Below are positions 38,501 through 41,500 of a stretch of DNA of 64,000 nt, piece after piece (the first letter of the stretch is position 1; each line of letters begins with the position of its first letter). The translations under genes were made by a program, and so were the position numbers. The notes under the pieces are model-generated. The model was not told where the DNA came from and did no database searches. It worked only from the letters and a program-made list of their open reading frames with translations. Source of the stretch: Euglena gracilis (Eukaryota); the NCBI GenBank assembly GCA_039621445.1, contig CP154954.1, positions 17,018,589 to 17,082,588 of the forward strand, written 5' to 3'.

Positions 38501-41500
38501 TGTATTGACATTAATAATAGTTGAATAATTAAATAATAAATAATGAATAATAGTTGAATTATAAATAATAGTTAAATAATAAATTAAATAAGAAATTTTG
38601 TTAAATAATTTTTTTTTGGGAAGGTTCTTGAAGAGTGCTAAGAACGTTCATAAAATTCCCAGTGCAATTGCCACTGTTTTTTGCAGCTTTTCGCACTGCA
38701 GGTTTCAATTTTTCTCATAAACCTGCAGGAGAGCACAAAAATCTGGTGTTGGAATTCAGATGGGGAAAAACACATGTTCAAAAGAAACTCACCAATGCCA
38801 CACCTCATGCACAGCTTTTTCCACACACAAAAAAGTAGATGTAATTTTTCAAAACAAGCATCCTTCCCCTCCCCCCCCCAGCCCCCCCCCCCCCCCGGCT
38901 GGCCCAAATTTAGCCAGTTGAAATTCTTTTCGGACTCTCCGGGGGGGGGTCTGCTTGCACCGGGGGTACCTGGGAGGGGGTCTGCTAACCCCAGCAGGGC
39001 TAGCTGGTGGAAAAAGCGCAAAATGTCGAAATCTTTTTTGGGCCCTTTTTGACCAAAGGCGTAGGTGTGCCAACTTGAATCAGAAAGCTGAATGTTCAAA
39101 AAGATGGGCCAAACAAAAAAGAAAACACGAGAGAGGTTATAAAGTGGAGATGATCCCAACTTTTTATTCTGCACTTCATAAAAACATTCTCTTGTCATCC
39201 ATTTCCATTCCATACCCTGACTAGATGGCTGGAAAAATTGATTAAACACCTGTGTGACCCGACCCCCTGGGGAGGGTTGGTTGGGGGCCGCTGGACCCCT
39301 GCCCTTCATCCCTCCAGGGGTGAGGTGTGAAATGGGGCAGATTTTGACCCATCAGAAGGCCGCTCTGTAATTGTTTTTTCAAGGTTTTCGGCCGACTTTG
39401 GCTGGATATTGGGTGGGCAGAAACCCCCCCCGGGGGGGGTTGTGTGTGAGTGGGTTTGGGCCAGGGGGTTTTTAAGTCTTGGACCCCCTCCCCCAGGGGG
39501 GGAGGGTGGGTGGGTCCCTTGGACCCCCCTCCCTCCCCCAGGGGGGGGTGGGGGTAGGGGCTGGTGGGTATATCTTTTTCGGCGCCAAAGGCGCCGAAAA
39601 TTTTTTAAAAGGTGCTTTTTAGCATTTTTGGCCATTTTCGGGCAAAAGTGGGTGGGTCCCCCGGGACCCCCCCCCCTCCCCCGGGGGGGCACCACCCCAG
39701 AGGGTGGGTGTGCCGACCCCCCCCCCCCCCCCGGCCTTAAAAAAAAAAACCCTGGTTTGGGCCCGGGAAAAGTACCCCGCGCCAGTAGTTCCGGGGGGGG
39801 GGTGAGTAAGTGAAATTATGGATGAGATTCACCATCAACCACTCTTAAGGATTAGAGGAAGGATAGCTGTTTTGAACAATGCACAGCCTTGGGAGGTTCT
39901 TCCCACGCTTTCCTGTCCGGCCCTGTGCTGCCTGCGACCGCCTCTCCACAGGGAGATGCTTTGGGTGGAGGGCTGGAAATTGCCCTTGCCTGCGATTACC
40001 GCGTGGTGGCCGCTTCGGCCAAGCACAACCTCGGCCTGCCCGAGACCATGCTGGGCGTGGTCCCTGGGCTCGGCGGAACGGTCCGGACGCCGCGCCTGAT
40101 CGGGCCAGGGCTGGACGGGAGTTGTTGTGTGCTGTATTTTTGTCAGTTGTAATGAAGATTTTAGCAAAAAAGGCAACTCAATGTTTCAAAAAAAATGGTC
40201 AGAATGGACGTCTAATGGTCGATTTGTGATTTATTGCAAAATAAAATTCATTGCAAAATAAAACCCCAAAACCCTGGCAATATGACGCAACCCCGTCTTT
40301 GAGATTGTGGGTGGATGGTGGAGGGTGGTCGGGTCCAACCCAGGCCATCTTGTATTTCCGGGGGTGCAGATTTTTTGGGCAAAATTTTCCTTCGGCGCTG
40401 AAAGAATTTTTCCGTGCGAAGTGTGGTGGTGGGTGGGGGTGAACCCCCCCCCCCCCCCGGTGGGAGGTCGATTCCCCCCTACCAGGCCTTCCTGCACAGC
40501 CCTGGATCGGGCTGCAGAACGCGCTGACCTACATCCTGCCGGGGAAGAACATGAAGCCGGCCAAGGCGAAGTCGATGGGGCTGGTGGACGCCCTCCTGGA
40601 GGACGAGGACCGTTTCGAAGGAGAAAACAGGTCCCCCCCTCCCCCATGTCCAATGAACGCCCTTGCCCGATGAACAGGGGGTGTCCGGACGTCCAGATTG
40701 TCACCATGCCCCTTGCACACACAATACGCAAACCCCCATGCCCAATGAACGCCCGCCCCCATCTGGACCGTCTGGGCTTGGGGGGGGGGAAGAAAATGGA
40801 TGCATTGGCTGGCTGTTGTTTTTTTGTTATTTTTCCAGGTTTTCACAAGCATATGCCAGTGAAGTTGTTATTTTTAATTGATCATTGAAGGCCGAAACTC
40901 TTAGCTGAACCCCTGAGACTGTCACCACAAGGGCGTCGCTCGAGCCGGCGCCCCCCCCCCCCCGTGGAAGGGGGGGATGGGGAAATTCTGTTTTTGGCAG
41001 GGCGGTCCATAAGACGGGAAGTTTTTTATCCTTGAGGACCGTCCTCCAAGGTCCGCCCTCAGGCCTCAGCCCCTTAGGATTGGGGCTTGAACGGGAAAGA
41101 TCAAAAAGTCGAGAAACACGCTTTTTGACGTTTTAGGGATGCCAGAAATCACTTTTTTTCCGAAGTCGACTCGTTTCTGTAAAATATGGCCATTTTTCGG
41201 CCATTTTTTTTCCTATGGATTTTTCATTGAATGTGCTGGGACCAGACAATTTTTTAAGCACTGTCCCCCCCCTCGGGGGGGTGACTGACTGGTTTTTTCA
41301 GAGACTGGTTTTGGGCCTGGACCCCCCCCCCCGGGGGGGGGTTGGCCAGGGGTGGGCAAAAGTGGCTTGAGTGACCCCGGTGCCAAAGGCGCCGGGAAAA
41401 TTTTTTTGGCCTAAAATGGCCTAAAGTGACTGGAAAGTGGCCGTTTTTTGAGTGGCCGACCCCCCCCCCCCGGGGGGGTAGTGACTGACTGGCTTCCAAA

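Follow-up and report, generated by a model that had tools for sequence, protein, structure and literature searches.

We examined a 64 kb stretch of Euglena gracilis DNA (assembly GCA_039621445.1, contig CP154954.1, positions 17,018,589 to 17,082,588) – hereafter the window, from whose first letter all positions below are counted. The window contains a single gene and no N, has a G+C content of ~50%, and is rich in C runs and G runs. The gene encodes a FadB-like trifunctional enzyme alpha (enoyl-CoA hydratase and 3-hydroxyacyl-CoA dehydrogenase), and one of its coding exons is split by a 399-nt non-coding element that we call E3. We confirmed that this insert is an intron: exactly 407 nt, comprising E3 and one copy of the 8-bp direct repeat that flanks it, are removed from the mature mRNA. 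The structure of E3 and of related elements in the window supports an origin as a transposon. Coordinates of the features are collected in Table 1.

The host gene is multi-exonic. When P0001, a transcriptome-derived complete open reading frame of 775 amino acids, was searched by tblastn, its residues 1-667 fell into 18 exon matches, with the 3' end of the gene beyond the mapped part. Database matches to the host protein carry the precomputed Pfam labels PF00378, PF02737, and PF00725, and P0001 itself is 98% identical over the split exon in a database search. The accession prefix of P0001 is that of Euglena longa, which places the source of the window in a Euglena close to this species. E3 sits in a crotonase-domain exon, whose upstream part is preceded in the RNA by a GT..AG joint (38356->39952). 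The left coding frame, ending at 40104 with ...TPRLIG, matches alpha subunits of fatty-acid oxidation in their crotonase domain (such as 1wdk_A, E 7e-14), and the right-hand coding frame starts at 40512.

The two halves align to adjoining residues of solved homologues. On Mycobacterium tuberculosis FadB (4b3h_A), left residues 1-51 correspond to 127-177 and the right Q2 to 179 (a weak right-hand match, E 0.05); on human HADHA (6dv2_G), the left part corresponds to 107-157 and right residue 4 to 161 (again weak on the right, E 1.2). The exon halves thus adjoin on both structures, so that nothing is missing between them once the element and one repeat are gone. P0001 and P0002, both relatives derived from transcripts, are likewise unbroken across the site (RLIGLQNAL and RLIGLQNSL). 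A preliminary description of this DNA had claimed that an insert with a perfect 8-bp target-site duplication (TSD) splits an exon between RLIG and LQNAL, and both the repeats and the adjoining halves bear this out. A metagenome scan with a 105-aa stretch of P0001 across the junction returned 40 loci with unbroken matches, all at <= 62% identity and none a euglenid genomic locus.

The terminal inverted repeats (TIRs) of E3 are perfect over 8 bp and, with mismatches, extend over 16 nt at 81% complementarity (pair I1). The 5' half of the element is A+T-rich and its 3' part carries G/C runs; this 3' subterminal G/C-run module resembles 52175-52299 (73% over 129 nt), a segment that falls in very high depth in the DNA run X4. 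Stop-free frames overlapping E3 contain no Pfam family at E <= 0.01, and an Rfam scan of 39400-40700 gave 31 sub-threshold hairpin-like matches, none close to its gathering score. A frame continued into the insert encounters two stops 15 codons further on. In RNA folding, CCAGGGCUG pairs with CAGCCCUGG in a 9-bp terminal stem that is present in both the minimum free energy and the centroid structures; the fold of the insert stretch has z = -2.2, and 2 of 100 shuffles fold equally well.

Table 1. Features of the split exon, its insert, and the related elements (window positions; "." where no strand is assigned)
Feature	Position	Strand	Remarks
Host gene, trifunctional enzyme alpha / FadB-like	26137-62583	+	tblastn of P0001
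Upstream exon part, ends ...RLIG	39952-40102	+	register of the 3/5 code; RNA permits an end at 40097-40105
Downstream exon part	40510-40626	+	runs to the next GT..AG intron
Left TSD copy, GATCGGGC	40098-40105	.	perfect 8-bp direct repeat
Right TSD copy, GATCGGGC	40505-40512	.	repeat pair D15: 100% identity, spacing 407
E3, 399-nt non-autonomous TIR element, non-coding	40106-40504	+	between the two 8-bp GATCGGGC copies
E3 left TIR, CAGGGCTG	40106-40113	+	CAG inside = 5' splicing motif
E3 right TIR, CAGCCCTG	40497-40504	+	CTG inside = 3' splicing motif
Predicted nonconventional intron, 407 nt	40103-40509	+	GGC+CAG...CTG+GATCG, next exon base G; register from the published code
E1, 2058-nt element (28576-30633)	28568-30641	-	perfect 8-bp TSD CCCCTGAT; in a conventional intron of the host gene
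E2, 293-nt CAGGG...CCCTG element (39462-39754)	39454-39762	.	perfect 8-bp TSD GTTTGGGC; in the conventional intron directly upstream
Degenerate solo end like the E3 3' end	52719-52748	+	...ACCAGGCCTTC..CAGCCCGG
E4, 376-nt CAGGGTTTGATA-ended element (52793-53168)	52785-53176	.	TIR 18/24; flanks G8 (low complexity)
E5, 778-nt element (55896-56673)	55888-56681	.	16-bp perfect TIR CAGGGGATTTCTTAAG; perfect 8-bp TSD CCAGGGGG

We compared sequencing reads with positions 36700-54100 of the window, using two raw RNA-seq runs (X21 and X24), contigs of the RNA-like run X15, and contigs of X4. The RNA evidence thus comes from raw-read runs carrying the same species label and from X15, a small-share run that behaves like RNA. 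Consistent with the insert acting as an intron, we found an RNA joint, 40097->40505, that skips 407 nt – the element plus one repeat copy – with ends GA..TG. The joint can slide by 8 positions (its value for 'both'), exactly what an 8-nt repeat permits. It is supported by 85 raw RNA reads: 70 in X21 (28+42; 58 starts) and 15 in X24 (11 starts). X24 is strand-specific, and all 15 of its joint reads have the first mate on minus, consistent with + strand RNA.

The contigs of X15 gave the same result. A 482-nt contig with a depth of 2261 runs 39952-40097, 40505-40626, and 42390-42502 with no other letters and no gaps; it contains the joined product that had been predicted from the letters alone (...CTGATCGGGCTGCAG) and shows 0 differences from the window exons over 381 nt. 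The interior of the insert is present at trace depth: a single X15 piece is listed inside the element (40188-40341), and its depth of 2.2 equals that of a conventional-intron piece (39237-39400). In X21, the bin holding most of E3 has a depth of 22.7, by a rough estimate no more than its 122 exon bases would contribute if covered like exons in adjacent bins, and retention is therefore low. The joined form has depth 0 among the X4 contigs, one of which (39740-40455, depth 43.9) crosses the left junction unbroken; depths range from 26.8 to 37.7 in the seven further long pieces listed for X4.

We then considered how the insert is removed. Of 13 RNA-supported introns listed in 36700-54100, 11 are GT..AG and two are not (the E3 intron and 48412-49123); two further introns outside that RNA list read GT..AG in the sequence. 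Nine registers are compatible with the E3 joint, and GT-AG, GC-AG, or AT-AC occurs in none of them, which rules out cryptic spliceosomal sites and agrees with the earlier claim that no GT-AG is used.

Euglenid nonconventional introns have a published consensus – CAG at +4..+6 and CTG at -8..-6 (Milanowski 2014; PMC11282704) – which the preliminary description had given correctly. Knock-in work on the E. agilis and E. gracilis code (PMC12501133; PNAS 2025) reports that CAG and CTG are essential and, by mutation, that spacers of exactly 3 nt in front of CAG and of 5 nt behind CTG are needed, +1 being tolerated in the latter. The same study finds a purine favoured as the first exon base and reports that 50-bp synthetic introns following the CAG/CTG spacer rules get spliced. 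Applied to E3, this code would place the cuts at 40103/40509, with CAG at +4..+6, CTG at -8..-6, and G (40510) as the first exon base. The downstream exon would thus start with a purine, and the Y of the usual Y|R pattern would be absent at both junctions. Sequencing the excised circle had been proposed as a means to test these ends; this was mistaken, because all 9 registers give the same 407-nt circle, in which the element plus GATCGGGC stands between CTG and CAG. The corresponding back-joint is absent among the 15 joints listed (of 15 + 1075).

To see whether elements with identical flanks exceed chance, we compared the 8-nt flanks of all 1057 CAGGG..CCCTG pairs lying 40-3000 nt apart in the window. 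Flank identity peaks at 2/8; three pairs, all poor inverted repeats, reach 7/8, and five reach 8/8 (one with a G8 flank) versus ~0.03 expected by a rough binomial estimate. When all 1024 five-letter ends were treated in this way, only four gave >=4 perfect cases that are not of low complexity, and the three besides CAGGG are homopolymer-like (GGGGG, TTTTT, AAAAC). An unbiased scan for an 8-bp repeat joined to a perfect inverted repeat of >=6 gave 19 matches versus 0-3 in 20 block shuffles, which hold fewer repeat pairs than the real sequence (~3100 versus 14131).

One of the five CAGGG elements is a relative of E3. E1 lies ~10 kb upstream in inverted orientation and shares homology with E3 at both termini, with 34/44 identical positions at one end (pairwise E 6e-6) and 16/19 at the other (counted by eye). 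A 19-nt degenerate terminus pattern matches only E1 and E3 in the window. Perfect TIRs measure 7 bp in E1, 8 bp in E3, and 16 bp in E5. E4 lies in DNA of very high depth (X4 bins at 51806-53548 read 178910 to 342938). Close to it is the solo end listed in Table 1, for which a partner end was searched for and not found. E1 and the other CAGGG elements with 8-bp duplications lend support to the transposon origin that had been proposed for the insert.

With E1 read in the orientation of E3, positions 5-7 of the TSD are GGG in all five CAGGG elements (n=5) and lie immediately ahead of the CAGGG end. This may reflect an asymmetric target preference, which would automatically give a purine at the future exon start.

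Elements with other ends also carry 8-bp duplications in the window; their families end in CATAG, GGTAC (29-bp TIR), and ATGGC (17-bp TIR). Two CATAG...CTATG elements (21039-21483 and 51146-51435) have perfect 8-bp flanking repeats (GGGTCAGC and AGCGAGGA) – two perfect cases in only 29 pairs – and look like a second 8-bp-duplication family. They lack the CAG/CTG splicing motif and should therefore not be tolerated in exons. We also observed an 842-nt element (31172-32029) in a long conventional intron; its inverted repeat (GGTACTTGTCTG...) is perfect over 29 bp, and an 8-bp repeat (GGGTTTTT) flanks it. Its interior holds telomere-like GTTAGG/CCCTAA repeats in both orientations (31331-31877).

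Taken together, we consider it probable that E3 is a non-autonomous, cut-and-paste, CAGGG-ended transposon that entered a coding exon and is excised from the RNA by nonconventional splicing. In this scheme, a non-autonomous cut-and-paste DNA transposon would have entered the trifunctional-enzyme alpha exon, duplicating 8 bp. Its inverted ends would pair in the pre-mRNA and present CAG on the 5' side and CUG on the 3' side to the nonconventional splicing system, which would cut 3 nt before CAG and 5 nt after CUG. The element and exactly one duplication copy would leave together, because 3+5 equals the 8-bp duplication, and the original frame would be back with no scar. Base 6 of the TSD would become the first exon base and should thus be a purine; here it is G. 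The arithmetic, put forward in the preliminary description, is sound given the spacers of 3 nt and 5 nt established by mutation (PMC12501133).

Several observations weigh against this scheme. Some concern splicing: the RNA data do not separate register 40103/40509 from the eight others, and the junctions it predicts are G|G and not the usual Y|R, from which deviations are common in nonconventional introns (Guminska 2018). The gene has another noncanonical intron (48412-49123; 75 X21 reads), which fits neither the published code nor the TSD model. It reads TT..CA with no slide, has no CAG at +4..+6 and a CTG at -6..-4 instead of -8..-6, and shows no trace of an 8-bp repeat, having only a 5-nt TGGAT repeat just inside and after its junctions. 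Not all noncanonical introns here therefore match the model.

Others concern the element itself. Its perfect inverted repeat is just 8 bp long, and its relatives in the 64 kb amount to one element, alike in the termini only (~77-84%), and one solo end. An X4 contig crosses 350 nt of E3 at single-copy depth, which suggests that near-identical copies are absent elsewhere. Pfam found no transposase among 20 long window frames, 10 of which lie in or near elements and, like those inside E1, E3, and E5, contain no family at E <= 0.01; an autonomous copy was likewise not seen. Pieces of reverse transcriptase, RNase H, Dam, and C5-methylase, all within the first 15 kb, are the window's sole enzyme matches. 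The hAT superfamily, to which the insert had been assigned, shows family-typical target patterns such as nTnnnnAn or nnnTAnnn, and the TSDs GATCGGGC, CCCCTGAT, GTTTGGGC, CCAGGGGG, and G8 do not fit them. Finally, contigs can lose rare variants, which leaves room for an allele with an empty site.

[quoted passage not shown] Structural features of hAT elements are an 8-bp TSD and YARNG ends, and the hAT TIRs listed in PMC3014272 begin CAGGGG. All five elements here have CAGGG, which fits YARNG, at both ends, and the TSD is perfect (8/8) at E1, E2, E3, and E5, with G8 flanking E4. E3 is thus hAT-like by structure, and we leave its superfamily open. As in MITEs, E3 is short, non-coding, and bounded by TIRs and a TSD; the many copies expected of a MITE are not seen in the window, which holds the one relative and the solo end.

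The foremost alternative keeps both the transposon and the nonconventional intron and assigns E3 to another superfamily with 8-bp TSDs (P, Merlin, Mutator-like, or a new one). CAGGG also agrees with CANRG, the end motif of the P superfamily; TSD length and a 5-nt end motif were the only properties compared, and GATCGGGC, CCCCTGAT, GTTTGGGC, and CCAGGGGG lack the hAT target patterns. Moreover, non-YARNG families with 8-bp TSDs (CATAG..., GGTAC..., ATGGC...) share the window, so several lineages may be active. We nevertheless regard this alternative as unlikely, if far from negligible, since an 8-bp TSD with YARNG ends is the standard hAT signature and known hAT TIRs begin CAGGGG, as E5 does (PMC3014272).

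A second alternative dispenses with transposition altogether: repair of a double-strand break with filler DNA would have made the 8-nt repeat, and splicing would have selected the CAG...CTG ends. Milanowski 2016 (PMC4770533) reads the 8-nt repeat of a new E. agilis gapC intron in this way, and the short perfect inverted repeat of E3 suits it. Three points make it improbable. CAGGG ends with perfect 8-bp flanks occur four more times, in conventional introns, where there is no selection for exon repair; E1 shares ~19 nt and 44 nt of its termini with E3 but has a different duplication, as copies of a mobile family would; and a constant length of 8 is not expected from break repair.

According to a third alternative, the joined RNA comes from an allele or paralogue that lacks the insert, and the window copy is a silent or degraded insertional pseudogene. 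The RNA does show >=2 haplotypes in the gene (46886 C>T, 47280 T>C), and retained transcripts carry stops and could be lost to nonsense-mediated decay. Set against this, X4 DNA has no joined contig, its contig across the left junction has full single-copy depth, the X15 contig is identical to the window exons, and the same reads show 12 other introns of the copy in the window spliced out – observations that together make a separate source of the joined RNA highly improbable. Reverse transcriptase jumping across a hairpin flanked by direct repeats is a scarcely credible source of the joint: a 9-bp stem with 8-nt direct repeats does favour template switching, but the joined form is nearly the sole form (X15 depth 2261 versus 2.2 for the one listed inner piece), the X21 bin over the element does not exceed the estimated share of its exon bases, three libraries from different studies agree, a retained insert would truncate an essential enzyme, and removal of such introns in vivo has been shown genetically (PMC12501133).

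The reading of E3 as a transposon removed by nonconventional splicing invites a generalization. We tentatively propose, as a possibility that falls a little short of probable, that the euglenid code of 3 nt + CAG...CTG + 5 nt is an imprint of CAG-ended transposons that duplicate 8 bp, such that any insertion into an exon would be erased scarlessly if TSD base 6 is a purine. The earlier, general claim that the splice geometry follows from the TSD draws on this case and on one published 8-nt repeat, and is a hypothesis here. If the generalization is true, CAG-ended elements could have seeded most of the hundreds of thousands of Euglena nonconventional introns, young introns should slide by exactly 8 nt, and CATAG- and GGTAC-ended families should be missing from exons. 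As pure speculation, the 2-nt stagger of the cuts around the helix (5 minus 3) would point to an RNase III-like or tRNA-splicing-like endonuclease with a ligase, and not to the spliceosome.

The origin of euglenid nonconventional introns has been a question since the 1990s. This locus offers a worked example – an intron whose removal is proven by RNA and whose sequence can be followed, base for base, as that of a fresh TIR/TSD insertion, with a family mate 10 kb away. Comparing the 3-nt and 5-nt spacers with an 8-bp duplication turns the question of origin into a genome-wide count, and the link between them would explain how a genome tolerates massive insertion into coding sequence.

The reads also revealed further features of the host gene. 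Exonic differences at 46886, 47280, and 48360 occur in 30-75% of the RNA reads, and the older DNA run shows them fixed; in X21, 154 of 206 reads carry 46886 C>T and 169 of 232 carry 47280 T>C. The gene has at least two expressed haplotypes or strain differences. A micro-exon of 27 nt (51061-51087) lies between two GT..AG introns (120 + 114 X21 reads). Transcripts past 53982 contain ~22 letters without a match in the window at <=1 mismatch, followed by an exon near 59252; the extra letters may be further-split micro-exons or an allele difference.

Outside the exons, introns of the gene contain very high-copy repeats (45415-45995, 41348-41928, and 51806-53548), with X4 depths of up to 1.6 million versus ~35 for single-copy DNA; 45668-45991 is a 163-nt tandem pair. 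Upstream of the gene, stop-free frames on the + strand (439-14656) encode RVT_1 at 3251-4783 and 12905-14656, the latter also with RNase H, together with a piece of a Dam N6-adenine methylase (439-1656, last 40 aa) and a piece of a C5 DNA methylase (11116-11985). This region may be a retroelement carrying DNA methyltransferases.

Comparison with known systems places E3 closest to the euglenid nonconventional introns (Tessier/Canaday; Milanowski 2014, 2016; Guminska 2018; PMC12501133). Like them, it has no GT-AG, CAG at +4..+6, CTG at -8..-6, paired ends, a slidable repeat at its junction, and a purine at the exon start, and it is removed from the mRNA. Excised introns of this kind have been reported as full-length circles (PMC11282704). 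Their excision characteristically follows that of conventional introns. E3 differs from them in being readable as a TIR element with a perfect 8-bp TSD and a family mate, and in its G|G junctions.

The idea of a MITE origin is itself known. It has been published, as a hypothesis only, by Milanowski 2014, Guminska 2018, and PMC12501133 – the last with the remark that 'origins remain unclear' – and in a figure legend of the 2024 review PMC11282704, CAG/CTG are marked TIR and the repeats at the junctions TSD. A full-text literature search returned no paper naming hAT, a transposable-element family behind such an intron, or 3+5 = 8-bp TSD; the supplements and figures of the 2016 and 2025 papers (Table S3, slide-distance chart) lay outside that search and may bear on this point. 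We see the geometric link between the 3+5 spacers and the 8-bp duplication as a modest but sharp addition.

Non-autonomous hAT elements, of which Ds of maize is an example, provide the structural comparison. E3 resembles the hAT non-autonomous elements and MITEs of Anolis (PMC3014272) in its 8-bp TSD, its YARNG-fitting CAGGG, its short TIRs, and its non-coding length of a few hundred bases. It departs from hAT families in its target sequences and in its 3' G/C-run module, which is common to other repeats of this genome.

The nearest single precedent is gapC intron 4 of E. agilis ACOI 323 (PMC4770533), a nonconventional intron with exactly eight-nucleotide junction repeats, like those of E3; it is absent from other strains and is thus recent. 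There, the repeat is read as a trace of break repair, and the authors name no TIR family or superfamily, in contrast to the TIR/TSD structure proposed for E3.

Outside the euglenids, the introners of Micromonas, dinoflagellates, and others (PMC11282704) share with E3 the central logic that we propose – non-autonomous TIR/TSD transposons removed as introns, with the TSD forming part of the splice geometry and the mRNA restored. The MITE-derived introns of Fritillaria borealis (PMC11282704) come closer in one respect, being transposon-derived, non-GT-AG, and removed by the host, but their removal is ascribed to an altered U2 spliceosome. Introners, too, are removed by the spliceosome, at GT/AG-type sites of which one is built in the TSD, whereas E3 lacks a spliceosomal signal and would instead be read through its paired TIR ends.

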